This document shows positions 9,449-39,122 of a stretch of 64,000 bases of DNA, one piece after another. The position numbers and the translations under genes are program-made. The DNA lies in assembly GCA_964522435.1 (NCBI GenBank), contig CAZFUL010000004.1:54360-118359 (forward strand). Reading direction: 5' to 3'. Source of the stretch: an uncultured Gammaproteobacteria bacterium. GTDB taxonomy: Bacteria; Patescibacteriota; Patescibacteriia; Magasanikbacterales; UBA922. The notes beneath the pieces were generated by a model. It was given only the letters and a program-made list of their open reading frames with translations. It did no database searches and was not told the origin of the DNA. How positions within the stretch are numbered: the first letter of the stretch is position 1; each line of letters begins with the position of its first letter.

Positions 9449-9574
9449 AGTAATAGCGTATATTCAAAGCGATAGAGGATCCTATCATGGCACTTTTCCT
9501 CTGTCAAGGGATGTTTTAGCTTGAATTTTATATGGTATTACGATAGGATGGTGAGGTATAACATATGTTTTATG

Positions 9575-12301
9575 AAAGATTTGCCAAAGGCCTACGAGCC
9601 AAAACTCTACGAAGATGATATTTATAAACAATGGGAAGAAAGTGGATTATTTAATCCAGATGTTTGTGTTGAAAAAGGTGTCACGAAACAAGATGCGAAG
9701 GCCTTTAGTATTGTCTTACCACCGCCCAATGTGACGGGAACCCTGCATATGGGCCATGCGGCGATGCTTGCGATTGAAGACGTTATGATTCGCTACCACC
9801 GGATGAAAGGGGATAAAACCTTGTGGTTGCCAGGGACAGATCATGCAGCGATTGCGACAGAATCAAAAGTAGAAAAATTGCTTATTGATGCGGGAACAGA
9901 AAAACCAAAAGAAATTCTTGGGCGTGTTGAGTTTTTGAAAAAAGTCGATGTCTTTGCGCAAGAATCTCACGACACCATTGTTGGGCAGGCAAAAAAAATG
10001 GGTGCTTCGCTCGATTGGACCAGAGAAGCGTTTACCTTAGACGAGGTGCGCAATAAAGCGGTACGAAGCGTCTTTAAAAAAATGTACGATGATGGACTTA
10101 TTTATCGTGGGGATCGCATTGTCAATTGGGATCCAAAAATGCAATCAAATGTTGCGGATGATGAAATTGAATATAAAGAAGAACAAAGTGAATTTTACTA
10201 TTTTCAGTATGGGCCGTTTGTTATTGGGACGGCTCGCCCAGAAACAAAATTTGGTGATAAATATGTCATCATGCATCCAAGTGATGAACGCTACGCGAAA
10301 TACAACCATGGCGACATCTTTACTTGTGAGTGGATTAATGGACCAATTACGGCAACAATTATTAAAGATGAGGCGGTAGACCCTACCTTTGGTACGGGAG
10401 TTATGACTATTACGCCTTGGCACTCCGTGGTGGATTTTGAATTAGCAGAAAAATACAAGCTTGATAAAGAGCAAATTATTGATATGGATGGACGATTGCT
10501 CCCTATTGCGGGTGCCTTTGCTGGCATACCAATAGCCGAGGCACGAAAAAAGATTGTTGAACATTTAGACAAAAAAGGATTAGTCGTAAACATAGAAAAA
10601 AATTACGTTCATAATGTTGCCGTAAATTATCGTGGTGGGGGAGTAGTAGAACCGCAAGTTCGCAAACAATGGTTTATTGATGTGAACAAAAAATTTGTTC
10701 TACCACACTCACAGATTACAGGCATTCACCATGGTCAAGAAGTAACGCTAAAAGAATTGATGCAAACGGTTGTTCATAATAAACAGGTTAGCATTCTTCC
10801 AGAGCGATTTGAAAAAACCTATTTTCATTGGATAGATAATTTGCGTGACTGGTGTATTAGTCGCCAAATTTGGTATGGTCATCAAATTCCCGTGTGGTAC
10901 AAAGGAGAAGAGATATTTGTTGGTGATGCTGCACCAGAAGGTGATGGATGGACACAAGATCCGGATACCCTTGATACTTGGTTTTCTGCTGGACTTTGGA
11001 GCTTTTCTACCCTGCTCGATAAAGACATGAAAGAGGGAGAAACATTTGAAGAGTGGGTTGCCCGCTCAACGGACTTGAAAGATTTTCACCCAACATCTGT
11101 CCTTGAAACAGGCTATGATATTCTGTTCTTTTGGGTTGCCCGCATGATTTTAATGACCACCTACACCCTTGGCCAAATACCGTTTGAAACAGTGTATCTA
11201 CATGGCTTAGTGCGAGATGATCAAGGAAGAAAAATGAGTAAGACGCTCGGCAATATCATCAACCCCCTCGACATGATTGAAAAATATGGGACAGATGCAA
11301 CCCGTCTTTCTCTGTTGATTGGCTCAACACCAGGAAATGATGTCAAATTGTCTGAAGAAAAAATTGCAGGATTTAGAAATTTTACGAATAAATTGTGGAA
11401 TATCAGTCGGTTTATTTTGTTGAATATTGACCAGCCTAAAAAAGATGTAGAATTGCCAGAAATTAAAACATTAGCTGATGCAGCGATTCTTTCCAACCTA
11501 GGGAATCTTTTGCTTTCAAGTCTTATTGAAACACATAGGTATTCTGCTGCGGGCGAAGAATTAAGAGATTTTACTTGGAATGAACTTGCTGATAAATATT
11601 TAGAAATTGCAAAATTTGAAGAAAATAAATCAGAAGTACTTAACTATGTACTTAATACAATTTTAAAATTGTGGCATCCCTTCATGCCATTTGTTACTGA
11701 GGCAATTTGGAAAGAAATATATGGTGAAGACGAAATGTTGATGGTTGAACAATGGCCAGTTATTAATATACCACATTCTCCTTCTATCTTAGATGCGTAT
11801 AACGAATATATTAGACTTGATTATTATCCTCAGGACGTCCAGAATCTTTGGCAGAATCTTTGGGATGTAATTACCTCTATTCGTTCTCTTCGTTCTGAAA
11901 AAGGAATAGCTCCTTCCGTCAAATTATCTGTATATATTATTACAAAGGAATACCAAACATTATTTGAAAAAAATAAATCAGTTATTGAAAAATTAGCTCG
12001 ATTAGAATCACTTTCGGTCGTATCAGAATTAGAAAAGACAACAAGTATCGCTTCGGTAGTTGTTGGTGCGTCTGAAGTTTGTATTGACTTTAAGGGGGCA
12101 ATTGACCTTTCTGCTGAAAAGATTCGTATCCAAAAAGAAATCGACCACGTTGCTCCGTATGTTACGGCGCAAGAAAAAAAATTGGCAGGAGATTTCGCAA
12201 AGAACGCACCGGAAGCCATTGTCGAAAAAGAACGACAAAAATTACAAGAAGCCCAAGAAAAATTACAGCTTTTACAAACACAACTTGATCAATTGAAATA
12301 A
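9575..12301 (+). CDS. valS: Valyl-tRNA synthetase
   Basis: Class I HIGH motif PPPNVTGTLHMGHA. KMSKTLGN. C-terminal coiled-coil (LQEAQEKLQLLQTQLDQLK). The start is chosen at MKDLPKAYEPK, which matches the usual ValS N-terminus. The longest ORF starts at 9521. Confidence 0.93.
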   Translation, partial: KDLPKAYEPKLYEDDIYKQWEESGLFNPDVCVEKGVTKQDAKAFSIVLPPPNVTGTLHMGHAAMLAIEDVMIRYHRMKGDKTLWLPGTDHAAIATESKVEKLLIDAGTEKPKEILGRVEFLKKVDVFAQESHDTIVGQAKKMGASLDWTREAFTLDEVRNKAVRSVFKKMYDDGLIYRGDRIVNWDPKMQSNVADDEIEYKEEQSEFYYFQYGPFVIGTARPETKFGDKYVIMHPSDERYAKYNHGDIFTCEWINGPITATIIKDEAVDPTFGTGVMTITPWHSVVDFELAEKYKLDKEQIIDMDGRLLPIAGAFAGIPIAEARKKIVEHLDKKGLVVNIEKNYVHNVAVNYRGGGVVEPQVRKQWFIDVNKKFVLPHSQITGIHHGQEVTLKELMQTVVHNKQVSILPERFEKTYFHWIDNLRDWCISRQIWYGHQIPVWYKGEEIFVGDAAPEGDGWTQDPDTLDTWFSAGLWSFSTLLDKDMKEGETFEEWVARSTDLKDFHPTSVLETGYDILFFWVARMILMTTYTLGQIPFETVYLHGLVRDDQGRKMSKTLGNIINPLDMIEKYGTDATRLSLLIGSTPGNDVKLSEEKIAGFRNFTNKLWNISRFILLNIDQPKKDVELPEIKTLADAAILSNLGNLLLSSLIETHRYSAAGEELRDFTWNELADKYLEIAKFEENKSEVLNYVLNTILKLWHPFMPFVTEAIWKEIYGEDEMLMVEQWPVINIPHSPSILDAYNEYIRLDYYPQDVQNLWQNLWDVITSIRSLRSEKGIAPSVKLSVYIITKEYQTLFEKNKSVIEKLARLESLSVVSELEKTTSIASVVVGASEVCIDFKGAIDLSAEKIRIQKEIDHVAPYVTAQEKKLAGDFAKNAPEAIVEKERQKLQEAQEKLQLLQTQLDQLK

Positions 12302-12302
12302 T

Positions 12303-13550
12303 ATGTCTGTATCCACAAACAAAGAACAGATTGCCGCACTTCTTAGCCGGGGAGTAGATGAAATTATTGGCAAAGAAGACTTAGAAAAAAAATTACAGAG
12401 TGGCAAACAACTCCGTATTAAGTTAGGGATAGATCCAACCAGCCCACATTTGCATTTGGGGCGCTCTATTCCCTTATTAAAATTGCGTGACTTTCAAGAA
12501 CTTGGTCACAAGATTGTGTTTATCATTGGCAATTTTACCGGCGTCATTGGCGATACCTCTGATAAAGACAGTGAACGCCCGATGCTTGAAGACAATACGA
12601 TTGCGCATAATATGAAAGAATATGCGGCACAAGCAGGAAAAATTATTGATTTAGATCAATGTGAAGTACGCTACAATAGTGAATGGTTATCATCACTCAC
12701 CTACGGAGAAATTGGCCGACAAGCGAATGCCTTTTCTGTTGCAGAATTTATTGCCCGCGATAATATTAAACGTCGGCTTGATGATGGAAAGCGAGTATCA
12801 TTGCGCGAAATGTTGTACCCCTTAATGCAAGGCTATGATTCTGTGGCGGTACAGGCAGATGTAGAATTGGGTGGAACAGATCAACGCTTTAATTTGCTTG
12901 CGGGCAGAGTGTTGCAGCAAGAATACAAACAAGAACCACAAGCCATTATCATGGGGCCACTTGTTGAAGGAACAGACGGGCGTAAGATGAGTTCTAGTTG
13001 GGGGAATACCATCAATGTCACAGAATCTCCCAATGAGATGTTTGGCAAAGTGATGAGCATTCAAGATGAATTAATTATCAAATACTTTAGCCTTATGACG
13101 CGTGTGCCTATGGAATTGGTACAGCAATATGCACAAGACATGAAAGAGGGCGCGAATCCAAAAGAATATAAAATGAAATTAGGATTTGAACTTGTGCGAT
13201 TTTACCATTCAGAAGAAGCCGCACATTTAGCCAATGCCTATTTTATTGACACCTTTGCAAATAAACAAATTCCTACAGAAATGCCTTTGATTAGACCTCA
13301 AAACTATAAGTTGATACCTACTTTGGTTGAGAGTGGTCTTGCAAAAAGTACTTCAGATGCATTACGTTTAATTTCTGGTGGAGGCATTAAGGTTAATGGA
13401 AAAAAAGTGTTTCCTTTTGTTCCTGTTAGTGAATTTAACGAGGATGGATCTGTCCCCGGTTATGATTTAAAACCAGGAGATACTGTTCAAAATTTGGAAC
13501 CAGGGGATATTATCCAAAAAGGAAAACGATTTTTTGTCCGAATCACGTAA
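12303..13550 (+). CDS. tyrS: Tyrosyl-tRNA synthetase
   Basis: GIDPTSPHLHLGRSIPL (HIGH-type), KMSSSWGN (KMSKS), and a C-terminal S4-like domain. About 415 aa. Confidence 0.85.
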   Translation: MSVSTNKEQIAALLSRGVDEIIGKEDLEKKLQSGKQLRIKLGIDPTSPHLHLGRSIPLLKLRDFQELGHKIVFIIGNFTGVIGDTSDKDSERPMLEDNTIAHNMKEYAAQAGKIIDLDQCEVRYNSEWLSSLTYGEIGRQANAFSVAEFIARDNIKRRLDDGKRVSLREMLYPLMQGYDSVAVQADVELGGTDQRFNLLAGRVLQQEYKQEPQAIIMGPLVEGTDGRKMSSSWGNTINVTESPNEMFGKVMSIQDELIIKYFSLMTRVPMELVQQYAQDMKEGANPKEYKMKLGFELVRFYHSEEAAHLANAYFIDTFANKQIPTEMPLIRPQNYKLIPTLVESGLAKSTSDALRLISGGGIKVNGKKVFPFVPVSEFNEDGSVPGYDLKPGDTVQNLEPGDIIQKGKRFFVRIT

Positions 13551-15279
13551 TAGTTTATCTGTAATTATGTTAGAACAACACCTTATTCAGCTTCTCACAT
13601 CCCTCGGTATTCCTGAGCCGTTGCAGTTATCAAAACCTCCCAAACAAGACATGGGCGACTATGCCTTTGCCTGTTTTGATATTGCCAAACAAACAGGAAA
13701 AAACCCTGCGGAGTATGCAAAGGAATTAGTTGAAAAAATACAAGAACAACACAATCCTCTTATTACCAAAGTGCAGGCATTTGGCCCGTATGTGAATTTC
13801 TTTTTGAATATAGAAGAGCTTGCCTTGCAGCTGCTTGCTGACATTCATACGCAAGGAAATAACTACGGAAAGCATTCTATCGGAAAAGGAAAAACATACC
13901 TTATTGAATTTGGTTGCCCGAATCCCTTGAAGGCGTTTCATTTAGGACATTTAAAAAATCTTATTACTGGTGAATCAGTGGCACGATTATTTGAACAGGG
14001 AGGCTACACGGTCGTACGGGTAAATTACCAAGGTGATGTCGGGATGCATGTGGCCAAAGCCTTATGGGGAATAGTTGATTGGAAAGAACAATTTGATGTT
14101 ATGGCCGAGATGCCACTCACGCAACGGGTGGAATTTTTAGGCAAAGCCTATGCGCATGGAGCTGCACACTATGAAAAAGATGATGCGTCAAAACAGGAAG
14201 TTGTGGCATATAATGATAAAGTATACGAAGAAGATCCATCAATACAAGAGATATATACAAAAGCGCGTGCATGGAGTTTGGCCTATTTTGATGATATTTA
14301 TACACGCATGGATACCCGTTTTGATCATTTTTATTTTGAATCACAAACAGCAATGCCAGGAATCGCATTGGTAAAAGAATATCAAACAAAACAGGTATTT
14401 GAAGAAGGAGAAGGGGGAGCGATTATTTTTCCTGGATCACGCTACGGCTTGCATGATCGGGTGTTTATTAATGGCAAAGGCTATCCAACCTACGAGGCAA
14501 AAGAAGTTGCCTTGGCGCAAGAACATTTTAAACAACAACCAGATAAAATTATTCACGTTGTTGGAAAAGAACAAACTGAATATTTTAAAGTAGTTATTGC
14601 AGCAATTGAACAAGTATTTCCAGATAAACAGGGAATTGAATATCACCTCCCTGGTGGCTTTTTGCAGTTAAAGGGAGAAGAAAAAATGAGTTCCCGTAAA
14701 GGAAATATTATTACTGGTGATGAGCTCATTGCCTTGGTAGAAGAAAAAATTGCTCGTCTCATGCGTGAGCAAGAAAAAGATACGGTAACACAAATAGATG
14801 ATAGCCAAGTACACACTATTGCGGCAGCCGCGTTAAAATATGCCATGTTAAAAGCAGATATTACGAAAGATATTGCGTTTGATATGGATGAGTCTGTCTC
14901 TACGAGTGGGGATAGTGGCCCATATTTATTATATACGGTTGCCCGCATTAATAGCATGTTAGCAAAAAACACTGCTGATACTGTAGCAATGCCCTTGGTT
15001 GTTCCAGATAGCTTGCATGATGAAGAAAAACAATTAGTCTTTATGTTGGCTGAATATCCGCAAACGGTTAACAAAGCACTCGAACACTATGATCCGTCTT
15101 TTGTTGCCAAATATCTTTTCTCGTTGGCGCAGGCATTTCACCGATTTTATGCTGCTTGTCCCGTATTGACAAGCGACCCTATTGAAAAACGCTTTCGTGT
15201 AGCGCTCGTTGAGAGTATTCAACAAACCATGACCAATGGCTTACATATTTTGGGGATTAAGACGGTATCCTCAATGTAA
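13534..15279 (+). CDS. argS: Arginyl-tRNA synthetase
   Basis: CPNPLKAFHLGHLKN (HIGH) and EKMSSRKGN. Has the N-terminal Arg-tRNA-binding add-on and the DALR-like C-terminus. The start may instead be the internal Met at 13567. Confidence 0.9.
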   Translation: MSESRNSLSVIMLEQHLIQLLTSLGIPEPLQLSKPPKQDMGDYAFACFDIAKQTGKNPAEYAKELVEKIQEQHNPLITKVQAFGPYVNFFLNIEELALQLLADIHTQGNNYGKHSIGKGKTYLIEFGCPNPLKAFHLGHLKNLITGESVARLFEQGGYTVVRVNYQGDVGMHVAKALWGIVDWKEQFDVMAEMPLTQRVEFLGKAYAHGAAHYEKDDASKQEVVAYNDKVYEEDPSIQEIYTKARAWSLAYFDDIYTRMDTRFDHFYFESQTAMPGIALVKEYQTKQVFEEGEGGAIIFPGSRYGLHDRVFINGKGYPTYEAKEVALAQEHFKQQPDKIIHVVGKEQTEYFKVVIAAIEQVFPDKQGIEYHLPGGFLQLKGEEKMSSRKGNIITGDELIALVEEKIARLMREQEKDTVTQIDDSQVHTIAAAALKYAMLKADITKDIAFDMDESVSTSGDSGPYLLYTVARINSMLAKNTADTVAMPLVVPDSLHDEEKQLVFMLAEYPQTVNKALEHYDPSFVAKYLFSLAQAFHRFYAACPVLTSDPIEKRFRVALVESIQQTMTNGLHILGIKTVSSM

Positions 15280-15293
15280 CTAGTACTAAGCTA

Positions 15294-15321
15294 TTGACAT
15301 AGTATTTATTTGTGCTATATC
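15294..15321 (+). promoter_or_regulatory. Candidate promoter upstream of pdaD
   Basis: TTGACA (15294-15299), a 16-nt spacer, then TATATC. Confidence 0.4.
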
Positions 15322-15357
15322 TTGTAGTGAGGGGATTTTTTATTTAACCTGTTTTAT

Positions 15358-15885
15358 ATGGATATTCACGTTGTTACCGGAAAAGGAGAAGGAACGACAT
15401 TGCTTTCTTCTTTTGATGCTGCGCTTAAAGATTCTGGTGTTTATAATTATAATTTAATTTACTTATCTTCGGTTGTCCCGCCACAAGCAAAGATTCAAGA
15501 TATTGGAAAATTGTTTGATCAACCAGGTATTCATGGCGATCGATTGTATGTGGTTATTGCAAGAGAGCAAAGTGATGTGGTTGGCACAGTGATTGGATCA
15601 GCGGTTGGTTGGTATCAGTTTGATAGTAGTGGCGCGGGTGTATTTGTGGAACATCATATACAAGGAACCCACATGGCCGATGTCTCTACGGAGTTAGAAC
15701 GACTTATTACCTATTCTGTTCGTGATCTTTGTCATGGACGCGGTATTCCCTTTGAAAAAGAAAAATGTCATTCAGCATTGTCTGTTATGACGGTGCAAAA
15801 TAGACCGGCAACAGTATGTGTCTTAGCGGTATTTCAACATGAACCTTGGCGACAACAACACAATTCCCACGTTTCCGGTGTTTAA
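15358..15885 (+). CDS. pdaD: Pyruvoyl-dependent arginine decarboxylase (PdaD/AaxB family)
   Basis: HVVTGKGEGTTLLSSFDAALKDSGVYNYNLIYLSSVVPPQAKI aligns with the PdaD N-terminus, including the Ser-Ser self-cleavage site (LSS|VVPP). Confidence 0.8.
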   Translation: MDIHVVTGKGEGTTLLSSFDAALKDSGVYNYNLIYLSSVVPPQAKIQDIGKLFDQPGIHGDRLYVVIAREQSDVVGTVIGSAVGWYQFDSSGAGVFVEHHIQGTHMADVSTELERLITYSVRDLCHGRGIPFEKEKCHSALSVMTVQNRPATVCVLAVFQHEPWRQQHNSHVSGV

Positions 15886-16792
15886 AAAATTATTATTAAG
15901 CGATCGTGAATTTTTTATCGAGTATACTCGTCGCTTTTTGCCATATTCAGATAGTAATTTTACCAGTCTTTGGACCTGGAATATTGAAGAACAAGTGGAA
16001 ATAAGTATATTGAACGGCAATTTGGTTATTCTTTTTCAAGATTATCTTACCAGAGAGCCGTTTTTTTATTTTATGGGGACCGAGCAGGTAGTGGAAACGA
16101 TAACAACCTTATTAGCGGAAGCGGCAAAACGGGGGTATACACCACAATTAAAATTAATTGGGCAAGAAGTAATTACGGCATTGCAACAAGAAATACAAGG
16201 GAACAATTCCCTTTCTTTTATCTATAGCGAAGATGAAGATCAACATGATTATGTGTACGATATGCAGCTGCTGAGTACTATGTCAGGAAAAAAATTACGC
16301 GGAAAAAAGAATTTTATTAATCGTTTTGAAAAAGTATACGCACAAGAAGCAAAGATTATCCGTTTAGATCTATCTGATAAAGCAATTCAAGAAAAAATTA
16401 TTCGTCTCTTTTTACGCTGGGCAAATGAGTCACAACAAGATACAACCGAAACAGCAAATGAACTGCAAGCTATCGGTCGATTATTGCTTCATCAAGATCA
16501 GTTTTCTTTGCATGCCGTGGGTATTTTTATTGATAGTGAATTGATTGCGTTTGCGATTAACGAATTTGTTACAGAAGAGTACGTTATTAATCATTATCAA
16601 AAAGCAATAACCAGCTATGTTGGCGTGTATCCATTTTTAATGCAGGCCATGAATCAGTGTTATGTGCAAAAAGGGTATCGCTACATGAATGCAGAACAAG
16701 ATTTAGGCCTCCCTGGGTTACGAAAATCAAAACAAGCCTATCAACCAATTTTTCAATTAAAAAAATATCGTATTACTTCAGCCACCGAGTAG
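15839..16792 (+). CDS. Hypothetical cytoplasmic protein
   Basis: 317-aa ORF with no family I can name with confidence. The true start is probably the GTG at 15878 (overlapping pdaD by 8 nt) rather than the ATG at 15839, which overlaps by 47 nt. Confidence 0.45.
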   Translation: MNLGDNNTIPTFPVFKKLLLSDREFFIEYTRRFLPYSDSNFTSLWTWNIEEQVEISILNGNLVILFQDYLTREPFFYFMGTEQVVETITTLLAEAAKRGYTPQLKLIGQEVITALQQEIQGNNSLSFIYSEDEDQHDYVYDMQLLSTMSGKKLRGKKNFINRFEKVYAQEAKIIRLDLSDKAIQEKIIRLFLRWANESQQDTTETANELQAIGRLLLHQDQFSLHAVGIFIDSELIAFAINEFVTEEYVINHYQKAITSYVGVYPFLMQAMNQCYVQKGYRYMNAEQDLGLPGLRKSKQAYQPIFQLKKYRITSATE

Positions 16793-16861
16793 GGTTGACA
16801 GAAATGGCATACTTTGCTAGCCTCTCTTCGCCAATCACGGCAACACACAAGGAGAAGCTCA

Positions 16862-17479
16862 ATGAGCTTGGCTGACATTGGATTTATCATGGTGTTGTTG
16901 TTCACCTTGCCCGAAGTTTGGGCAGAGTGGCTGCAAGGCCGGCGCATCCGATCGATGCAAACGGGCACCTCGGTGCCGGTGAGCACCAACTCCATTGACA
17001 TCGCAACCTTTTTTGCGTCGGCGATCTATGGATTGTTGTATCCGGGGTTCAGCTGGGCGTACTTTCTCAACGGTCTGTTGACTGGGCTGGCCTTTTTCTA
17101 CGTCGGTGTTGGACTCCGCAAGTATCGTCGTGCCACGTGGCGAAACTACGTACTGGATCTATTCCTCATCGGAAATTTAATCCTGATGGTCGTCGTGGAC
17201 CAAGGCAATCGCGAACTGCTCATGACGGGGTTTTTGCTCTATACCTTGATTGGCGAGAGCAAACTGCTTCATGAACTCTGGCGCGATGGACGAGGCGCGG
17301 TTGAGTTCAAGAAGGTTATGACCTGGTTGGTGAGCAACATCTCGTTCACCATCTATGGCTATGCAATACAAGACCCAGTGTTTTTGTATTGTTGCGGCGC
17401 CATCTCAGTGGTGCAAGCCATCCAGGTCGTCGTGTATCTTCGCGCACCACCACGCGAAGAAGAATCATCTGCGAGCTAA
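16862..17479 (+). CDS. Seven-TM small membrane protein encoded in a GC-rich island
   Basis: The sequence aaggag, 8 nt, then ATG (MSLADIGF...). About 7 hydrophobic helices in 206 aa. Composition is clearly GC-rich relative to the flanks. Confidence 0.5.
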   Translation: MSLADIGFIMVLLFTLPEVWAEWLQGRRIRSMQTGTSVPVSTNSIDIATFFASAIYGLLYPGFSWAYFLNGLLTGLAFFYVGVGLRKYRRATWRNYVLDLFLIGNLILMVVVDQGNRELLMTGFLLYTLIGESKLLHELWRDGRGAVEFKKVMTWLVSNISFTIYGYAIQDPVFLYCCGAISVVQAIQVVVYLRAPPREEESSAS

Positions 17480-17605
17480 GGCTCGTGTAGGAGTTGAAGC
17501 CATTGTGTTCAGGGTGGGGACACAATGGCTTCCCGAGGTTCCTTGTTTTTTCTCCATGTGCTATACTCTCTTTAGAATAATTATATTTAATTTATTGTAA
17601 GGGGT

Positions 17606-18427
17606 ATGTTGCACATTGCAAAAGACAGATACACCAAATTCATTATAGTTTGGGGAGCGCTCATGACAATATGGTGGTTGGTATTACACGCAGGAACCTT
17701 TAGTGAAAATCAATATTTAATTTTTGGTGCGGTATACGGAACCATTATTACCTTATTTGTTTCTTTGTTTGGTTTTTCTACCGCAAAATATTGGGGAGGC
17801 ATGAAAAGCATCATGGGCAAAGCAATATTTTTTCTTTCTGCCGGGGTATTTGCGCAATTTTTGGGTCAGTTAGTATTTAGCTTTTATAATATTATTTTAG
17901 GGGTCGAAGTACCCTACCCGTCTCTTGCTGATATTGGTTATTTTGGCAACATTCCGCTGTATGTGTTAGGAATTATCTATTTGGCACAGGCATCTGGATT
18001 AAAGTTGTCGTTGAAATCATTTGGATCAAAACTGCAAGCCGTATTTATTCCTATTATCATGATTGCTATTTCATATACGCTCTTTTTGCGCGAGTATGAT
18101 TTTGCGTCAAGTGATTTACTGACCATGGTATTAGATTTTGGCTATCCGATTGGACAGGGATTATATTTATCTATTGCCCTTGTTACCTATAGTTTGTCTG
18201 TAAAAACGCTTGGTGGTATTATGCGCAGCCGCATTGTATTTATTCTGGCTGCCTTTGTTATGCAATATTTAGCTGATTTTAACTTTCTATATCAACATCT
18301 GGTTGGCACCTGGTATAACGGTGGGTATGGTGATTATTTGTATCTTATCGCATATGTGTTTATGGGAATTGGTTTATTCCAATTGAGAGTAACCGCCCAA
18401 GCATTACGTGCTGAAGAAAAAAAATAA
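17606..18427 (+). CDS. Polytopic membrane protein, unknown function
   Basis: At least 7 hydrophobic segments. Preceded by a TATACT -10-like element at about 17558. Confidence 0.5.
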   Translation: MLHIAKDRYTKFIIVWGALMTIWWLVLHAGTFSENQYLIFGAVYGTIITLFVSLFGFSTAKYWGGMKSIMGKAIFFLSAGVFAQFLGQLVFSFYNIILGVEVPYPSLADIGYFGNIPLYVLGIIYLAQASGLKLSLKSFGSKLQAVFIPIIMIAISYTLFLREYDFASSDLLTMVLDFGYPIGQGLYLSIALVTYSLSVKTLGGIMRSRIVFILAAFVMQYLADFNFLYQHLVGTWYNGGYGDYLYLIAYVFMGIGLFQLRVTAQALRAEEKK

Positions 18428-18436
18428 TACTAAGCT

Positions 18437-18715
18437 ATGGATAGCATATACGAAAAAATCATTCGTGAAATCATCAAACAGCAAGAGATGATTGTTGGCT
18501 CATTAGCGTGGACCGAAGCAAAAAAAGTAGATGGGTTAGAAATTGCCGATGGACAGCTGGTGCGGGTTCAAGGAAATGATGAGAAAGTATTAGGCTTATT
18601 AGTCGAACAATATAAGCGTTTGTTTGGTCTTGCCTCTGTTGCGGTCTGTAAGGATGCGGTGAAATCATTATCAAATGAAACAAAGGATGTTCGACTTCCA
18701 GACATCTTAAAATAA
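18437..18715 (+). CDS. Small hypothetical protein
   Basis: 92-aa ORF, tightly spaced after the membrane protein. No recognisable motif. Confidence 0.3.
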   Translation: MDSIYEKIIREIIKQQEMIVGSLAWTEAKKVDGLEIADGQLVRVQGNDEKVLGLLVEQYKRLFGLASVAVCKDAVKSLSNETKDVRLPDILK

Positions 18716-18767
18716 TATCTATCGTGAACATAGTTCCCATTTCTTATAACAGACTGCTATTTTTTCT

Positions 18768-20333
18768 ATGGCAAGTATTGCTTCAAAAAAAACAAAAAGT
18801 GTATTTGCTGGTATTCGAGACAGTTTTGGTGGGAAGAAAAAAAATTTACAACAAGTAAATGAAAAATTATACGAACAAAATTTGGATTTAGCGATTCGTA
18901 ATAAAACACTTTCGTTACTGTATCGTTTATACGAAATCGCGACTGACTCTTTGGAAATAAATATTCTTTCTTCTCGTTTAGTAGATAATACCGCGGACGC
19001 CCTTAGCTTACCTTTTGTAAGTATTTTATTGGTGGACAAAAAAGAAAATTGTTTATCCATTGCAGCTTCAGCAAGCAATAGTGTTCCTAAAACAAATACC
19101 GTGCTTCAGGAGAAAAGAACGAGCTTGTTGCTTTCTACCGTAAAACATAAAAATAATTTATGTTTGCAAGCCTTGTTAAACGGAGAAAAAAAACAAACCC
19201 CGCATTTTTTTCATACCATGCAGCCTTTTTTTAGTACCAAAGCGTTCTCTGCCTTAAAACAACAAATGCATATTGAAACCGCACTTATTTATCCCTTACA
19301 AACAGCAAGAAAAAATATTGGGGTATTAGTTATTGGCTTAGATAAAGCCTATGATGATTTGACCATTTTTGACAAAGATTCTATTACCAACTTGGTGAAT
19401 GTATTTACGGTTGCGCTTGATAAATCTATTGTGTATGAAGATTTAAAACGAGCAAATAGTCGCTTGCAAATTTTGGATAGACAAAAAACAGAATTTCTTT
19501 CTATTGCATCACATCAATTGCGAACGCCTCTTTCTATTATTAAAGGATATATTGAACTTATTTCTGATGGTGCCTATGGACATGTATCTAAAAAATTAGA
19601 CGCGGTCTTAAAAGACATGGCAGATAGCAATGAACGCTTAGTAAAACTTGTCGATGACTTTTTAAATATTAGTCGTATTGAGCAAGGGCGGACAAAATAC
19701 TCGTTTAAAGAGCAGTCGATTGCGCCAATTATTCAAAGTGTAGTAGATGAATTATTACAGCGAGCTGAACAGGCCAATATAAAAATTTCTTGGAAAGGCA
19801 CAAAAAAAGGGAAAAAAGTATATATTGATGATGATAAAATTCGTCATATTATATTTAATTACGTCGATAATGCAATTAAGTATAGTGAAAAAGGGACTAT
19901 TAAAATTTTGGTAGATGAAGAAAATGATGGGATAAATGTTCGTGTGGTAGATGAAGGGTTTGGATTTGGCCCAGAAGATGAAGCAGCCTTTTTTCAAAAA
20001 TTTTATCGAGGAAAAAATGTCGAGGGGACAAACGTGAATGGAACAGGGTTAGGTATTTATGTGTGTCGTCAGTTTGTGGAAGCCCATGGCGGACATGTGT
20101 GGGCGCATAGTCCAGGACTAGGCAAAGGCAGTGAATTTGGCTTTTGGATTCCCATGCAAAAAACAAAAACTCATCAAATGATAGAAAAAATGTCTTCTAC
20201 GGAAAAACAACAAATTGTGAACCAATATGCACCACACGAAGACCTTCCTGTTGTTGCGCAAGGTCTTCTACCGACAGAAAATCCTCTTGTTCAAATAGAT
20301 CCTGCTGTTTCTCCATCTGCCTCTAGTGCCTAG
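18768..20333 (+). CDS. Cytoplasmic sensor histidine kinase (GAF-like N-terminus)
   Basis: H-box FLSIASHQLRTPLSIIKGYIEL. N-box VDNAIKYSEKG. G-boxes VVDEGFGFG and GTGLGIYVCRQFVEAHGG. No TM segment. No response regulator in the window. Confidence 0.85.
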   Translation: MASIASKKTKSVFAGIRDSFGGKKKNLQQVNEKLYEQNLDLAIRNKTLSLLYRLYEIATDSLEINILSSRLVDNTADALSLPFVSILLVDKKENCLSIAASASNSVPKTNTVLQEKRTSLLLSTVKHKNNLCLQALLNGEKKQTPHFFHTMQPFFSTKAFSALKQQMHIETALIYPLQTARKNIGVLVIGLDKAYDDLTIFDKDSITNLVNVFTVALDKSIVYEDLKRANSRLQILDRQKTEFLSIASHQLRTPLSIIKGYIELISDGAYGHVSKKLDAVLKDMADSNERLVKLVDDFLNISRIEQGRTKYSFKEQSIAPIIQSVVDELLQRAEQANIKISWKGTKKGKKVYIDDDKIRHIIFNYVDNAIKYSEKGTIKILVDEENDGINVRVVDEGFGFGPEDEAAFFQKFYRGKNVEGTNVNGTGLGIYVCRQFVEAHGGHVWAHSPGLGKGSEFGFWIPMQKTKTHQMIEKMSSTEKQQIVNQYAPHEDLPVVAQGLLPTENPLVQIDPAVSPSASSA

Positions 20334-20408
20334 GTTTGTTGTGTTTTATTTGATAATTTCGTATACTACCACTATTCTTATTTTTTATTTACTTTTGCCT
20401 ACTTTTGT

Positions 20409-20888
20409 ATGTTTCAAAAAAATTCTGATGAACAATATGTTGCTCCTCAATACGATATGCATGCTGCCGATGAAGTAGAAACCGTTGTTGGGCCTTCTGT
20501 TCAAGTGGAAGGTGATTTTGTTTCAGAAGGGAACATTGTTGTAAAAGGAATTGTTTCTGGAAGCGTAAAAACATCTCGACTCTTGCGTGTTGAAGAAGGT
20601 GCAAAAATTTTAGCACATGTTCGTGCAGGAAATGCGGTGGTCTCTGGGCATATTAAAGGCAATATGCGGGTAGAAGATACCTTAGAACTTACTGCAAGTG
20701 CACAAATTCTTGGAGATATTATTTGTCGAACCTTAGCCGTTGCCCCAGGCGCGTTGATTCACGGAAAAGTGAGTATGAATGGGGTAGAAGATATAGAAGA
20801 AGACAAACAAAAACGATCTCCACGCAAGAAACGATCAGCAGGAGATGATGATATGAAAGAGGGGGACGATGATGACATGGTCATGTAA
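20409..20888 (+). CDS. Bactofilin (polymer-forming cytoskeletal protein)
   Basis: A beta-helical repeat run (VVGPSVQVEGDFVSEGNIVVKGIVSGSVKT...LRVEEGAKILAHVRAGNAVVSGHIKGNMRVEDTLELTASAQILGDIICRTLAVAPGALIHGKVSM) typical of the bactofilin/DUF583 core. Acidic disordered tail. Confidence 0.8.
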   Translation: MFQKNSDEQYVAPQYDMHAADEVETVVGPSVQVEGDFVSEGNIVVKGIVSGSVKTSRLLRVEEGAKILAHVRAGNAVVSGHIKGNMRVEDTLELTASAQILGDIICRTLAVAPGALIHGKVSMNGVEDIEEDKQKRSPRKKRSAGDDDMKEGDDDDMVM

Positions 20889-20921
20889 GGTATTGCGCTT
20901 AGGAAGGCGGGTTCTCATTTT

Positions 20922-21698
20922 TTGTTGATACTTCTTATGTATGTATACTTATACGATACATTTTTGACGCATAAAGCATACGATGAAACGCTTAAAGAAG
21001 TGGAAACACGCCTTACGGATTTTGGTATTGCAGGAAAAATTATTCGTTTACAAAAATTTACCAATTGTGAGTTGGTGATTGAAGAAGAAATTCGTCGTGG
21101 GGCTACCACTATTATTATTGTTGGTGATGATCATACCTTTGGGCGTGTGTTATCACGGGCAGCGACCTGTGATATTTTATTTGGATTTTTACCCATGGGA
21201 AAAGAGAATAGTATTGCCCATGTATTAGGGATTCCTATTGGTGTTGATGCTTGTGATGTATTGGCACGGCGGAGAAAAATTCATTTGGATGTGGGCTGGG
21301 TAAATAATCGGTATTTTATTTCACAGCTACATATTCTTGCCCATGATATTCGCGTTACCTATGATGAACAGTTTTCTGTGTCATCATTAAATAAAAAAAT
21401 GGAATTAGTGGTGTGTAATTTACAACCTTTTGTTTGGAAAGGACGGGGAAAAGAATCATATGTGGTTCATCCACAAGATGGAAAGTTGGAAGCGTTTTTA
21501 CGGCCAGTAGCGAAAAAACGTCTTTTTTCTGATATTTATGAAGAGCCAAGTATTTTTCCCTTTGAAGAAATGGAAGTGGTGAGTGATACTCCCTTTGAAG
21601 TGATTAGTGATGGCTATTCGAGTAAAGAAAAAAAGATTGCTATTCGCTTGGCAAAGAATAAAATCAGTATGGTGGTGGGGAAGGAACGATCGTTTTAA
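20922..21698 (+). CDS. DAGK-catalytic-domain-like lipid kinase (YegS/DgkB-like)
   Basis: TTIIIVGDDHTFGRVL resembles the GGDGT nucleotide-binding motif of the diacylglycerol-kinase catalytic family. Homology is weak. Confidence 0.4.
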   Translation: MLILLMYVYLYDTFLTHKAYDETLKEVETRLTDFGIAGKIIRLQKFTNCELVIEEEIRRGATTIIIVGDDHTFGRVLSRAATCDILFGFLPMGKENSIAHVLGIPIGVDACDVLARRRKIHLDVGWVNNRYFISQLHILAHDIRVTYDEQFSVSSLNKKMELVVCNLQPFVWKGRGKESYVVHPQDGKLEAFLRPVAKKRLFSDIYEEPSIFPFEEMEVVSDTPFEVISDGYSSKEKKIAIRLAKNKISMVVGKERSF

Positions 21699-21758
21699 CC
21701 GTGTAACTCATTCCCTATTTACTTTTTTTTTAAAGTAGGATATCCTTTTTTCTATTAC

Positions 21759-21841
21759 GCTCAGGTGGCGGAATGGTATACGCGCATGCTTGAGGTGCAT
21801 GTGGGAGTAATCCCGTGGAGGTTCAAGTCCTCTCCTGAGCA
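21759..21841 (+). tRNA. tRNA-Leu (anticodon GAG), type II with a long variable arm; no encoded CCA
   Basis: Acceptor GCTCAGG/CCTGAGC. Anticodon stem CATGC/GCATG with loop TTGAGGT (U33, GAG, G37). 15-nt variable arm TGGGAGTAATCCCGT. T-arm GGAGG-TTCAAGT-CCTCT. Discriminator A. Confidence 0.85.
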
Positions 21842-21850
21842 CAACGAAAA

Positions 21851-21880
21851 ACAACCCAATTACTGTAGGGTTGTTTTTGT
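21851..21880 (+). terminator. Intrinsic terminator after tRNA-Leu
   Basis: ACAACCCaattactgtaGGGTTGTttttt. Confidence 0.7.
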
Positions 21881-22015
21881 ATCCCCTTGTATATTGACAG
21901 AAAAGGGGATATATGCTAGGTTTGTTCACCTTTTGCGCCAGGACATATTGCGCAAGGGTGTTCCCACAACTAGGGATAGGCATTGCCATCCCACACTCAA
22001 AGAAGGAGAACGTCG

Positions 22016-22459
22016 ATGAATCGACTGTTCGTTCTCGGAATGGTTCTCTGTCTCGCCGTCGTCGGCTGCTGTGGCAGCCAGCTTCATCCGGCCGAGAAGG
22101 AGAAGTCGGCGGCCACGCTCAAGGCCGAAGCGGCCACCCGCGAGCGTTACGCCAAGGCCCAGGCCGACCGCAAGGCCCAGGCCGAAGCCAACCAGGCAAA
22201 GCAGCAGCGCAAGCAGGAGGAGCAGCTCGCTGCTGCCCGTGCGGCTGAGGACCAGCTCAAGGCCGAGCGCTTGGCCAAGGAGGAGCTGCGTCAGAACCAG
22301 CAGAGCCTCTCTGTCGAGTATATCAAGCGCCACGCGCGGGAACAGAAGGTCTGGGACTGCCAGGCCAAGGCCCGCGAGAAGGGGCAAGACCCCATCAAGA
22401 CCTGCGGCCCGCTCTACCTGCCGAAGAAAAAGAAAGGACGCCTCGCGTCCAGCAACTAG
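22016..22459 (+). CDS. Coiled-coil lipoprotein (Ala/Gln/Lys-rich) encoded in a GC-rich island
   Basis: gaaggag, 7 nt, then ATG. MNRLFVLGMVLCLAVVGCCGS is a lipobox-type signal. The mature part is an AEAATRERYAKAQADRKAQAEANQAKQQRKQEEQLAAARAAEDQLKAERLAKEELRQ coiled coil. Strong GC3 bias, unlike neighbouring genes. Confidence 0.6.
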   Translation: MNRLFVLGMVLCLAVVGCCGSQLHPAEKEKSAATLKAEAATRERYAKAQADRKAQAEANQAKQQRKQEEQLAAARAAEDQLKAERLAKEELRQNQQSLSVEYIKRHAREQKVWDCQAKAREKGQDPIKTCGPLYLPKKKKGRLASSN

Positions 22460-22535
22460 GCTTCTTCGGCGCCATTGTCTCCACCTCGACGTATCGTCGG
22501 GGTGGGGGCATTCAAAAAAATATATGTTATCTGAT

Positions 22536-22558
22536 ACAGCCACGGGCTGTTTTTTTTA
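22536..22558 (+). terminator. Intrinsic terminator after the GC-island lipoprotein gene
   Basis: ACAGCCacgGGCTGTtttttttt. Confidence 0.7.
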
Positions 22559-22587
22559 TAACAAAAAACCCCGATGTCATCGAGGTA

Positions 22588-22994
22588 CTTTGTTGTTCAT
22601 CAGGCGTAAGCCGAATTTTGTCTCCCAATGAAATCATTGGGTGATGATCATTTCTCTTGTTCCACTATTGCTAGGGGAATCTAACGAGCGAACTTTTCCA
22701 ATGCCGATAAATCGGCAAGGGCTGCTCTTTCTCTCCATAGGGTTTACCACCCCCGTTCCTCGCGGATGGGGGAGTATATTTGCTTTTGTCTATAGGGCAA
22801 AAACATATATACACTTTTCACCTTTCTCCCGATGTAATCGAGATAGTATTGTCTCTGTGGCACTGTCCCGAACGTAGCGTTACCGATACGTTGGTGGGTG
22901 TTACCCACTATGTGATTATCTCCCAGAGGGAGATGAGAGTTCGGACTTTCCTCCCCGACCTAAGGGTAGGGGCGATCATCTGCTTGATGAACTG
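22588..22994 (-). ncRNA. rnpB: RNase P RNA (bacterial type, about 405 nt)
   Basis: The reverse complement reads GUUCAUCAAGC...GGGGAGGAAAGUCCGAACUC...GGGUAACACCCACC...CAGUGCCACAGAGACAA...GGUAAACCC...GACAAAAUUCGGCUUACGCCUGAUGAAC. P4 forms as AAG-U(bulge)-CCGAA with UUCGGCUU. A GG/CC to AA/UU compensatory change relative to E. coli supports the pairing. P1 is GUUCAUCA/UGAUGAAC. A terminator hairpin and U-run follow on the minus strand at 22562-22590. A TATAGT -10 and a TTGACC -35 lie upstream at 22999-23027. Confidence 0.88.
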
Positions 22995-22998
22995 GCAT

Positions 22999-23057
22999 AC
23001 TATAGCAAAAAAATGCGTGTTGGTCAAGTTGACCGTTTGCCTGTTTTTTCGTATGAT
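22999..23057. promoter_or_regulatory. Back-to-back divergent promoters for rnpB (-) and wbaP (+) sharing the palindrome GGTCAAGTTGACC
   Basis: Minus strand: TTGACC (+22022-23027 rc), a 17-nt spacer, then TATAGT (+22999-23004 rc). Plus strand: TTGACC (23029-23034), a 17-nt spacer, then TATGAT (23052-23057). Confidence 0.5.
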
Positions 23058-23086
23058 ACGCATAACGCTATTCCTTTTTTCTTGTT

Positions 23087-24505
23087 ATGAAACGATTTGA
23101 ACTCTTGTTTTTGTTTATTCAAATTCCTATTGATTTACTCATGTTATTGTGTGCCGCACTTACTGCGTATGCGCTTCGTTTTTCAGATTGGGCGGTAGGA
23201 TTGCGTCCGGTAATGTTTGATCTCACTATTGCCGAGTATCTGTCACTGCTTGCTATTGTTATTCCGTTGTGGTTGATATTATTTGCGATTGTTGGTTTAT
23301 ACAGCCCAAGCCCGTCCCGTCGTTTTGCAACAGATTTATTGCGCATATTTTTTGCAACCGCTGCGGTGCTTGCAGGGATTGCGTTATATGTGTTGTTTTC
23401 TCAACAATTATTTGATTCTCGCTTTCTTATTGCGGCTGGCTGGATATTGGCATTACTCTATGTAATGATAGGACGCTTTTTGGTTCGAGGGGTAAAAGGG
23501 ATTTGTTACCGAAGAGGAAAAGGATTACGACGTATTGTTATTATTGGACAAGATGCAATTGCCGATGAATTAGCCGAGACCCTCATGAAAAGAAAAGAAC
23601 TTGGCTATACTGTGGTGGCAGTGTTTGCTCATTTTACGGCGCATACCAAAAAAGAGGTAGACCAGCTGTCTCTTGATGAGGTGATTATGACAAATCCTCG
23701 CGCCAATGAAGAAGAAACCCTTTCGTTATTAGATTATCTGCAAGAACGGCATATTGCCTTTAAATATTCTGCAGATTTGTTTGCCACTATTGCAGCCAAT
23801 ACAACGATTCATCCCTTAGCAGGTATTCCTATTGTAGAAATAAAACCGACGAGATTAGAAGGGTGGGGAAGAATTGTAAAACGTATTGCCGACATTGTCA
23901 TTTCTTTACTGATATTGATTATCACGAGTCCGCTATTTCTTATTACGGGGATTATTATTTTGTGTGAAACCGGTCGTCCTATTATTTATAAAAATGAACG
24001 AGTGGGCGTCCGAAAAAAACATTTTTTTGTGTATAAATTTCGTTCGATGTATCAAAAAGATTCAACGGGTGCACAGTTTGGAGCGGATGGACAAAAGGCA
24101 TTGAAACGAGAACAAGAGTTGATTAAAGAAAAAAATAGTCGTTCTGGCCCTATTTATAAAGTACAAAATGATCCTCGGGTCACGCCCTTTGGCCGCTTTA
24201 TTCGTCGCTTTAGTATTGATGAATTTCCTCAATTTTTTAACGTTTTAAAAGGGAACATGAGTATTGTTGGTCCTCGCCCACATCAACCACGAGAAGTATC
24301 TGGATATGAAAAACGACATCGCTTGGCCTTTCATGTAAAGCCAGGGATTACTGGACTCGCACAAATTTCTGGGCGCAGTGATTTAAGCTATGAAGAAGAA
24401 ATGCGACTAGATATTCTGTATATTGAACGGTGGAGTATCTTGCTTGATATCATTATTTTTATTAAAACACCGTTTGTGTTGTTTAAGAGGAGAAAAGTGG
24501 AGTAA
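23087..24505 (+). CDS. Undecaprenyl-phosphate sugar phosphotransferase (WbaP/EpsL-type priming glycosyltransferase)
   Basis: N-terminal TM bundle, a central NAD-binding-like linker, and the C-terminal bacterial sugar-transferase motif DEFPQFFNVLKGNMSIVGPRP. Confidence 0.85.
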   Translation: MKRFELLFLFIQIPIDLLMLLCAALTAYALRFSDWAVGLRPVMFDLTIAEYLSLLAIVIPLWLILFAIVGLYSPSPSRRFATDLLRIFFATAAVLAGIALYVLFSQQLFDSRFLIAAGWILALLYVMIGRFLVRGVKGICYRRGKGLRRIVIIGQDAIADELAETLMKRKELGYTVVAVFAHFTAHTKKEVDQLSLDEVIMTNPRANEEETLSLLDYLQERHIAFKYSADLFATIAANTTIHPLAGIPIVEIKPTRLEGWGRIVKRIADIVISLLILIITSPLFLITGIIILCETGRPIIYKNERVGVRKKHFFVYKFRSMYQKDSTGAQFGADGQKALKREQELIKEKNSRSGPIYKVQNDPRVTPFGRFIRRFSIDEFPQFFNVLKGNMSIVGPRPHQPREVSGYEKRHRLAFHVKPGITGLAQISGRSDLSYEEEMRLDILYIERWSILLDIIIFIKTPFVLFKRRKVE

Positions 24506-38397: not shown

Positions 38398-39105
38398 ATG
38401 GATGAGGTTACGCGTTCGACCACACCACTGAGCACGCATCAAAAAGCAGGCTTTGTGCTCTTGCTTGTTTTTGGTTTATTGGCTGTTGGATTAGGAGCCT
38501 TACAAATGAGAAATACGATTTATAGTCCCTTTGCCTATAAATCACCAACTACGATCGCGCGTACCACAGAGGATTTATTACAAGATGAAACAATTCGATT
38601 ACAATCAATTGATACGGATCAAGATGGTCTGAGTGATTATGAAGAATTGTATTTTTATCAAACCAGTCCGTATATTCCCGATACAGATTCTGATGGCATA
38701 TCAGATAAAGCCGAATTAGATGCCTCAAGTGACCCTACTTGTCCGCAAGGAGCGGTGTGTGATGGCTCGGATCAATTTTTTACCTCACAAGCAAGTAGTA
38801 CCGCAACAACTCCTATGGGGATTCCAAGCGGGTTAGGGGCTGATGGTATTTTGCGCCAAGTAGATACGAGTATTGCGCAAGGTCAAGAAGTAGATTTGGG
38901 TGCGTTGCTTGGCAATGTTGACGCGGTACGAGAAATTATTGCGCAAACAGGAAAAATTCCCAAAGAACAATTAGACCAAATTGATGATCAAACATTATTG
39001 AATTTGGTTATTGAAATAATGGCAGAAGAAGAGACGTCACCGGCTGTCCCATTGCCGACAGAGGAAGCGTCTGCGTCAACAACGTTTGACACAACACTGC
39101 CTTGA
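38398..39105 (+). CDS. Membrane-anchored protein with two canonical EF-hand-type calcium-binding loops
   Basis: TM segment AGFVLLLVFGLLAVGLGALQM. DTDQDGLSDYEE and DTDSDGISDKAE both fit DxDxDGxxxxxE exactly. Acidic C-terminus. Immediately precedes the giant ORF. Confidence 0.55.
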   Translation: MDEVTRSTTPLSTHQKAGFVLLLVFGLLAVGLGALQMRNTIYSPFAYKSPTTIARTTEDLLQDETIRLQSIDTDQDGLSDYEELYFYQTSPYIPDTDSDGISDKAELDASSDPTCPQGAVCDGSDQFFTSQASSTATTPMGIPSGLGADGILRQVDTSIAQGQEVDLGALLGNVDAVREIIAQTGKIPKEQLDQIDDQTLLNLVIEIMAEEETSPAVPLPTEEASASTTFDTTLP

Positions 39106-39122
39106 TATTATCTAGCTACTTT

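Follow-up and report, generated by a model that had tools for sequence, protein, structure and literature searches.

A GC-rich gene for a SWEET-like membrane protein at an LPG_synthase_C locus of a probable Patescibacteria chromosome

How does a gene of foreign-looking composition come to lie in a neighbourhood whose gene order is kept among relatives? The question is raised by positions 16795-17550 of a 64-kb stretch of contig CAZFUL010000004.1, the whole of which is called the window here. This GC-rich segment, island 1, carries one gene for a small membrane protein, predicted to have the SWEET fold, between a stand-alone LPG_synthase_C gene and a gene for a 273-aa membrane protein. An initial annotation took it for one of three foreign single-gene insertions with a common source or mechanism, or for assembly contamination from a co-occurring high-GC organism. 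On balance, the best reading of the data is another one, which we prefer with modest confidence: a SWEET-like gene resident in this lineage and linked to LPG_synthase_C was repeatedly replaced by GC-richer versions.

A GC-rich unit in an occupied slot

The G+C content (GC) of 16795-17550 was 0.519, compared with a mean of 0.410 and a standard deviation of 0.037 for 700-bp windows (z=2.9), and only three regions of the 64 kb, island 1 among them, exceeded the mean by more than 2.5 standard deviations. The maximal GC-rich segment extended from 16903 to 17542, with a score of 23.3 against a shuffle maximum of 14.5. At third codon positions the GC of the gene (GC3) was 0.655, whereas 41 host genes gave 0.322±0.050 with a maximum of 0.468 (z=6.6), and its codon log-likelihood ratio was +0.19 per codon, compared with a host-gene maximum of -0.15. 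The contrast with the surroundings seen in the initial annotation is thus real and lies outside the host range. A fourth, mildly GC-rich stretch (30475-30993, inside a Wzy_C gene) was dropped, its score being within the shuffle range.

Island 1 is a self-contained transcription unit, consisting of a host-type promoter, a Shine-Dalgarno sequence, an open reading frame (ORF) of 205 codons and a GC-rich hairpin. The features of the unit and its two flanking genes are:

15839-16792, + strand: stand-alone LPG_synthase_C gene (DUF2156, MprF C-terminal-like; Pfam PF09924, E=3.3e-31), the conserved neighbour of the SWEET-like gene
16795-16800, + strand: ancestral -35 hexamer TTGACA, directly 3' of the LPG_synthase_C stop, with the same TAG-TTGACA in relatives L018 and L024
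16815-16823, + strand: extended -10-like element TGCTAGCCT, 17 nt past the -35, resembling the host promoter consensus
16815-16828, + strand: left copy of a 14-bp direct repeat, TGCTAGCCTCTCTT (repeat family D7)
16849-16854, + strand: Shine-Dalgarno sequence AAGGAG, 7 nt 5' of the ATG at 16862
16862-17479, + strand: 205-codon gene for the membrane protein with seven transmembrane helices (7-TM) and a predicted SWEET fold (3+1+3), GC 0.523, GC3 0.655
17496-17532, + strand: GC-rich hairpin with a 15-bp stem and a 7-nt loop (-30 kcal/mol, z=-3.4)
17546-17551, + strand: T-run beginning 14 nt beyond the hairpin stem, uncalled by the terminator scan
17559-17572, + strand: right copy of the direct repeat, TGCTATACTCTCTT, which begins TGCTATACT; ancestral extended -10 element for the 273-aa gene downstream
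17606-18427, + strand: 273-aa multi-pass membrane protein without a Pfam family, which in all relatives keeps its place behind LPG_synthase_C or the SWEET-like gene

The upstream stop (TAG) occupies 16790-16792, and the TTGACA just past it, the AAGGAG and the ATG are all where the initial annotation had put them. The ORF that it began there encodes 205 aa; the 206 aa reported are reached only if the stop codon (TAA, 17477-17479) is counted. The inverted repeat and T-run that it described at the right edge both exist, but the repeat, given as 9 bp, is perfect over 13 nt (17496-17508 and 17520-17532) within the longer stem, and the T-run stands well away from it. The hairpin is probably a terminator or a stabiliser of the unit; together with so distant a T-run it is no textbook intrinsic terminator. 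An integron gene cassette was rejected because the hairpin is perfect over 13-15 bp, the neighbouring genes scanned include no integrase and no GTTRRRY core was seen by eye, with no dedicated attC model run. By their annotated starts, pdaD (15358-15885) and the LPG_synthase_C ORF overlap by 47 nt (15839-15885); the real start of the second ORF may be farther downstream.

The gene order of the window is ValRS-TyrRS-ArgRS-pdaD-LPG_synthase_C-[island 1]-273-aa membrane protein-92 aa-histidine kinase-bactofilin-DAGK-tRNA-Leu-[island 2]-RNase P RNA. Exactly this order was found in P0004 (L021, L022 and L023), which reads DHH-ValRS-TyrRS-ArgRS-pdaD-LPG_synthase_C-[homologue]-276 aa-9x aa-histidine kinase-bactofilin-DAGK-tRNA-RNase P-Bac_transf. 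The homologue of P0006 (L025) also occupies this slot, following an ORF which ends in ...GLRKAKKAYRPVDLLKKY and aligns there with the C-terminus of LPG_synthase_C of the window, ...GLRKSKQAYQPIFQLKKY. P0005 (L018) and P0003 (L024) have the order EamA-[homologue]-LPG_synthase_C-278 aa-93 aa-histidine kinase-bactofilin-DAGK, with the homologue one gene upstream, on the opposite side of LPG_synthase_C, and the slot of island 1 empty (70 bp). On the P0002 contig the ORF upstream of the homologue is not LPG_synthase_C. The gene of this subclade adjoins a stand-alone LPG_synthase_C, free of TM helices, in five of the six known members. Scans of genomes and metagenomes with the neighbouring genes LPG_synthase_C and ArgRS recovered no relatives.

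Judged by this synteny, the SWEET-like gene type is resident in the lineage. The initial proposal of a foreign insertion does not agree with a slot that is occupied in relatives, exactly so in L021, nor with a protein family which is typical of CPR genomes (Candidate Phyla Radiation, Patescibacteria). With the slot occupied in relatives and the family CPR-typical, replacement or turnover of a gene resident in the lineage seems likelier than a new arrival.

GC3 of the SWEET-like gene was 0.655 in the window, 0.787 in L018 and 0.808 in L024, compared with 0.417 in L021, 0.441 in L025 and 0.357 in L001, while all neighbouring genes had values of 0.30-0.46. Homologues of the same locus are therefore GC3-rich in some genomes and of native composition in others, and they evolve several-fold faster than their neighbours. 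Amino-acid identity between the window and its relatives was 33-36% for the SWEET-like protein and 37-73% for the neighbours; between L018 and L024 it was 42% compared with 71-94%, and the ratio of nonsynonymous to synonymous substitution in this pair was about 0.5 compared with 0.02-0.13. Of the genes at the locus, LPG_synthase_C ranked second in divergence. Synonymous sites were saturated in every gene of L018 and L024 (proportion of synonymous differences 0.57-0.83), so that synonymous divergence cannot separate replacement from divergence in situ. If modelled as simple two-state relaxation, a GC3 excess that was neutral and predated the split of L018 and L024 should by now have fallen to about 0.43-0.52. 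Given the saturation and the modelled decay, the high GC3 either arose recently in each lineage or is being maintained actively.

Next to the variable gene, L018 and L024 share unusually conserved DNA: identity is 91% over the final 32 nt of EamA and 96% over a 47-nt element just 3' of the SWEET-like stop (L018 6706-6752, L024 883-929), which folds as a stable hairpin followed by a terminator. This element might act as 5' regulatory DNA for LPG_synthase_C, or as an anchor for recombination. The relatives have GC-rich patches of their own (L024 7009-7884; L021 235-600 and 1800-2260; L018 508-1109). One of them is an EamA transporter gene with a GC3 of 0.69; the others are short, with a GC of 0.54-0.66, no convincing ORF and no Rfam match. 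Small GC-rich islands seem characteristic of the clade in general.

The promoter region was compared next to the slot. TAG-TTGACA directly 3' of the LPG_synthase_C stop is common to the window, L018 and L024, and in all four lineages the 273/276/278-aa gene is preceded by an extended -10, TGnTATACT(C/T)TC. In L018 and L024 both promoter elements are found within the 70-bp spacer, whereas in the window a GC-rich unit of about 740 bp separates the -35 from the downstream -10 and is bracketed by TGCTAGCCTCTCTT (16815) and TGCTATACTCTCTT (17559). The two copies are identical at 12 of 14 positions (p≈0.026 when boundary was aligned against boundary). L021 has its homologue of native composition in the same spacer without this promoter and repeat architecture, which argues that the copy in the window is a later replacement and not the same insertion. 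The right copy belongs to a host promoter consensus, TTGAnn-N14-TGCTATAcT with an extended -10, which was also found at 27880, 49309 and 60721 and, on the reverse strand, at 6462 and 23027; it serves several genes and RNase P RNA and is useful for annotating the transcription units of this genome.

The window is core chromosome, with genes for ribosomal proteins L19 and S2, EF-Ts, UvrA, ValRS, TyrRS, ArgRS, GroEL, a release factor, YidC, KsgA and Sua5. Other products encoded there are a Cys-rich giant protein of 3017 aa (39102-48155), a TrbL/VirB6-like membrane protein of 984 aa (49339-52293) and a protein with a type IV secretion system pilin domain (4269-5657), together a surface or conjugation-like apparatus typical of ultra-small symbiotic bacteria. 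From such gene content the host is probably a small-genome bacterium of the Patescibacteria/CPR.

Replacement, change in place or insertion

According to the preferred reading, the resident copy would have been replaced recently and horizontally by a version drawn from a gene pool richer in GC, most plausibly that of related Patescibacteria. The incoming unit would have been placed in the spacer between LPG_synthase_C and the 273-aa gene, between the ancestral -35 and the -10 of the downstream promoter, with a duplication of 14 bp of the -10 region, and the gene of island 1 would now be read from the ancestral -35 and the duplicated -10. A like replacement seems to have taken place independently in the related lineages L018 and L024. 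We infer the mechanism and the donor from sequence comparison, the insertion step from a short repeat which overlaps a promoter motif. A patescibacterial donor pool is probable and fits the reported pattern, in which single-gene transfers into Patescibacteria come mostly from other Patescibacteria (PMC12455944).

Several observations weigh against a recent replacement. No donor or close homologue of the island 1 gene was found among 1.84 billion representative proteins, the best being 42% identical, and it is awkward for recent transfer that three independent GC-rich copies are all without near relatives. The subclade seems to be confined to this lineage, which would mean that the supposed GC-rich pool has gone unsampled. 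For the 14-bp repeat the significance is only marginal (p≈0.03), and the repeat overlaps a promoter consensus found at several places in the genome. No integrase, transposase or recombinase was found among the 36 ORFs of the window scanned against Pfam, including all genes from 9521 to 24505. The junctions confirmed by an independent assembly are those of island 2 rather than of island 1. Finally, the GC excess sits mostly at third codon positions, with the first and second positions slightly raised, so that a force acting in situ on synonymous sites would fit as well.

Such a force is the core of the strongest alternative, which we consider doubtful but which is kept alive by the lack of a close donor-like sequence: the gene was inherited vertically at its locus, without any donor, and both its GC3 and its fast protein evolution were made and kept in place, by GC-biased gene conversion with intense local recombination, by selection on synonymous sites or by another locus-specific mutational process. 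The restriction of the subclade to the syntenic lineage is as expected from this explanation, and so is the unusual conservation (91-96%) beside the variable gene of L018 and L024, where recombination would be anchored. GC3 has moreover stayed high in three genomes despite saturated synonymous sites, so something must keep it high. On the other hand, the shifts in bacterial GC3 reported for GC-biased gene conversion amount to a few percentage points, not to the +0.3 to +0.45 seen here. The copies of L021, L025 and L001 are of native composition, and the non-coding 3' hairpin of island 1 is GC-rich as well. The duplicated -10 region flanks the gene of the window in the manner of an insertion scar, and other GC-rich islands of these genomes are demonstrable insertions, namely island 2 and the insert at a duplicated tRNA end in L018, both described below. 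Recurrent replacement by related genes and locus-specific compositional forces in reduced genomes meet at a locus that makes a clean natural test case.

Quite improbable is a single event in which a gene new to the lineage arrived from an unrelated, co-occurring high-GC donor that also supplied islands 2 and 3. All three islands do carry one gene each for an envelope protein, as the initial annotation had stated: the 7-TM protein and two lipoproteins. Island 2 (21983-22560) contains a gene at 22016-22459 on the + strand for a coiled lipoprotein of 147 aa with the lipobox LAVVGC and a GC3 of 0.83, between tRNA-Leu(GAG) at 21759-21842 and RNase P RNA at 22592-22991 on the - strand. Island 3 (48231-48990) contains a gene at 48270-48842 on the - strand for a lipoprotein of 190 aa with thrombospondin type-3 (TSP3) repeats and a GC3 of 0.73. 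Both end in strong GC-rich hairpins without a U-tract. Beside the foreign composition of island 1, the idea of one donor finds support in codon usage, in which each of the three islands is closer to the others than to the host (+0.19, +0.67 and +0.43 per codon for islands 1, 2 and 3), and in a module, TTGACAGAAA...TGCTAG, shared by islands 1 and 2 (p≈0.001). However, the mutual codon fit stems mostly from shared GC-richness, GC3 differs between the islands (0.66, 0.83 and 0.73), and the shared module matches the promoter consensus of the host itself. The codon comparison proposed in the initial annotation thus gave the better mutual fit without demonstrating a shared donor. For island 1 the explanation is largely refuted by synteny, as homologues of the same subclade are found at the same locus in relatives, and by the CPR-typical distribution of the wider family.

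For island 2, absent from relatives, the situation is different. The gap between the tRNA and RNase P is 34 bp in L021 and 224 bp in L018, and an independently assembled Logan contig (SRR12762285) runs from tRNA-Leu through island 2 to RNase P RNA, identical to the window but for 4 nt inside RNase P. Island 2 is, by this comparison, a genuine insertion in a genuine genome. At the same position in L018 (12075-12282), the tRNA downstream of DAGK has its 3' end in two copies, a 19-nt repeat identical at 18 of 19 positions and 189 bp apart that brackets a GC-rich insert of about 170 bp. Site-specific integration at a tRNA gene classically leaves such a scar. Island 3 has an AT-rich upstream region (about 48905-48960) with a 14-bp palindrome, TATTATAGAAACAT...ATGTTTCTATAATA, and a 12-bp direct repeat, TTCTCCTT(T/A)GTC, at 48215 and 48972 (p≈0.024).

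A chimeric assembly, or a contig contaminated by high-GC reads, can be dismissed as scarcely credible. In its favour, the compositional boundaries are sharp, the contig derives from a metagenome, every host protein is a singleton known from one contig only, no independent contig was found across the island 1 junctions and the exact 25-mer of its left junction is absent from the JGI metagenomes. Against it, island 1 lies exactly in an intergenic spacer with no gene truncated, it uses a host-type promoter with the ancestral -35, it carries a gene of a rare, lineage-specific subclade where synteny predicts one and where a contaminant fragment would not sit, and the Logan contig spans island 2 independently. 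Island 1 is a genuine part of the chromosome, and sharp GC islands in metagenome-assembled genomes (MAGs) of the CPR need not mean errors of binning or assembly.

The protein and its possible role

Searches with the single sequence of the island 1 protein gave little. MtN3_slv (PF03083) was matched in Pfam with 20.9 bits, under the gathering cut-off of 23.7 and by the C-terminal repeat only; there was no match in NCBIfam and nothing meaningful in the PDB. A word-indexed search of 5.8 billion proteins recovered the query alone, and the nearest homologue used as a query likewise found only itself. An exhaustive HMMER scan of the 1.84 billion representatives gave 39 proteins, nearly all of 190-260 aa, and 38 of these were aligned (alignment A1) to produce a family profile. 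MtN3_slv is matched at E<0.01 by 28 of the 38 (best 7.5e-9), and three touch the Pfam PQ-loop. Positions 21-97 of the profile aligned with the SemiSWEET structure 4rng (3.5e-9) and also with 4x5m, positions 126-204 with 4qnc (7.8e-7) and 9kax, and the profile also reached the 7-TM AtSWEET13 (5xpd) by sequence with E=1e-3.

A single-sequence AlphaFold2 model was unusable (pLDDT, the predicted local distance difference test, of 47), and the model produced from the alignment was used instead, with a pLDDT of 95.4 and seven helices, in agreement with the number counted in the initial annotation. Its top Foldseek matches were 5xpd (AtSWEET13) and 5ctg (OsSWEET2b), with TM-scores of 0.69-0.71 over about 206 columns, followed at a lower level by the KDEL receptor and cystinosin. 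Lys and Arg together number 3, 5, 3 and 2 in loops 1, 3 and 5 and the C-terminal tail and 0 in loops 2, 4 and 6, from which an N-out/C-in topology follows by the positive-inside rule. As modelled, the product is a single-chain 7-TM protein of the SWEET fold, with two SemiSWEET-like triple-helix bundles joined by the linker helix TM4. By analogy with SWEETs it is most likely a monomeric alternating-access facilitator for a small solute, and in bacteria that import metabolites such a facilitator is a candidate for the uptake of host-derived nutrients.

The residues conserved across the family are Q25 (the Gln of the PQ motif), Y56-G57, N70-G71, Q135-P136, E138, G145, W162, Y165 and D171. In the window protein, Q25, present in 37 of 38 members, is preceded by Leu, with P17 located 8 residues upstream in TM1; neither TM1 nor TM5 has the Pro-Gln pair of a PQ-loop, the Q-P of family repeat 2 being L135-L136 here. 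N70-G71 is conserved in repeat 1 (28-29 of 38), whereas the aligned Asn position of repeat 2 is not, and the pocket Trp of repeat 2 (30 of 38) is replaced by F162. The subclade adds the invariant acidic residues E18 and E22 in TM1. With these divergent residues (L135-L136, F162, E18 and E22), specificity for sugar is not assured; a sugar as the substrate is suggested by family analogy. The acidic residues of the pore helix, the loss of PQ and Trp features and the neighbouring genes for ArgRS, arginine decarboxylase and a lipid aminoacylase domain dependent on aminoacyl-tRNA make a role with cationic amino acids or related to aminoacyl-lipids a reasonable alternative, offered as speculation.

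The protein family was located in genomes with the sub-alignment A4, alignments A1 and A3 being too diverse for this purpose. Eleven loci in species-representative genomes were found, nine in MAGs of CPR/Patescibacteria (Saccharibacteria, Parcubacteria, Giovannonibacteria, Kerfeldbacteria, Paceibacterota, Wolfebacteria and unclassified) and two in genomes labelled Gammaproteobacteria. The genes of this broad family mostly match the composition of their own genomes (genome GC 0.32-0.62), with L007 and L015 as exceptions, in which the gene is about 0.05-0.07 GC above the rest of the locus. No conserved neighbourhood and no link to sugar metabolism was apparent at the broad-family loci, where neighbours include ThyA, EF-P, POR, FtsZ and a methyltransferase. 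Scans of viral contigs with all three island proteins gave no viral relatives.

Within the subclade, the adjacency of the two genes suggests that the SWEET-like protein probably works with LPG_synthase_C, and the linkage to a soluble synthase of the MprF type suggests a non-sugar role for the SWEET fold. A more specific proposal, which we regard as unlikely in its entirety, would make the SWEET-fold protein the dedicated membrane partner of the stand-alone LPG_synthase_C in a Patescibacteria clade. The two would form a split MprF-like system handling an aminoacylated lipid or a cationic amino acid and not a sugar, and the gene would be a hypervariable cassette at the symbiont-host interface, swapped or kept GC3-rich by a locus-specific process.

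Comparison with known systems

The closest structural matches are the eukaryotic SWEETs OsSWEET2b (5CTG) and AtSWEET13 (5XPD), with which the window protein shares a single chain of about 205-230 aa, the 3+1+3 arrangement of helices and the N-out/C-in topology. It differs from them in being bacterial, in an identity of only 12-15%, in the lack of the canonical PQ Pro in either repeat, in Phe for the pocket Trp of repeat 2 and in the conserved acidic residues E18, E22 and E138 of TM1 and TM5. SemiSWEETs (TySemiSWEET 4RNG, LbSemiSWEET 4QNC, EcSemiSWEET 4X5M and 9KAX) resemble the halves of the family, each of which aligns to a protomer (E=3.5e-9 to 2.7e-6), and most members retain the aligned Gln of the PQ motif, the YG motif, the pocket Asn of repeat 1 and the Trp of repeat 2. 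However, SemiSWEETs have three TM helices and must dimerise, whereas the family of the window has two such units fused through a fourth helix in one 7-TM chain. Among other members of the MtN3/PQ-loop clan, cystinosin, the cationic amino-acid exporters PQLC2/Ypq and the KDEL receptor have the same 3+1+3 superfold (TM-scores 0.43-0.58), but they are proteins of eukaryotic organelles and match less well than SWEETs in both structure and sequence. The acidic residues of the pore helix recall PQ-loop members that handle protons or cations, which serves as a lead.

Rare prokaryotic 7-TM MtN3-like proteins with one detectable MtN3_slv repeat were described by Jia et al. and explained by duplication and fusion of SemiSWEETs (PMC5742349, PMC5972207). 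Likened by description, without direct sequence comparison, these proteins (e.g. PaSWEET of Pseudoalteromonas) represent the same concept as the window protein. They come from Alteromonadales, Pseudoalteromonas and Legionella, whereas the family described here is found mainly in CPR MAGs and its subclade is linked to LPG_synthase_C. A full-text literature search gave no paper tying SemiSWEETs or bacterial 7-TM MtN3-like proteins to the CPR, and a 7-TM family centred in CPR/Patescibacteria was not found in the literature searched. Single-chain SWEETs of prokaryotes bear on the origin of eukaryotic 7-TM SWEETs by fusion of SemiSWEETs.

As a genetic unit, island 1 resembles the single-gene horizontal units known as phage morons and those transferred among Patescibacteria (PMC12455944) in having its own promoter, one ORF, a terminator-like hairpin and a deviant composition. 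It differs in lying outside any prophage or mobile element, in having no viral relatives and in replacing or duplicating a function already present at the locus. Island 1 is therefore no categorically new system and is a variant of two known things, bacterial 7-TM SWEET-like proteins and single-gene horizontal units; the unexpected twist is that a synteny with LPG_synthase_C conserved in the lineage is combined with repeated compositional turnover.

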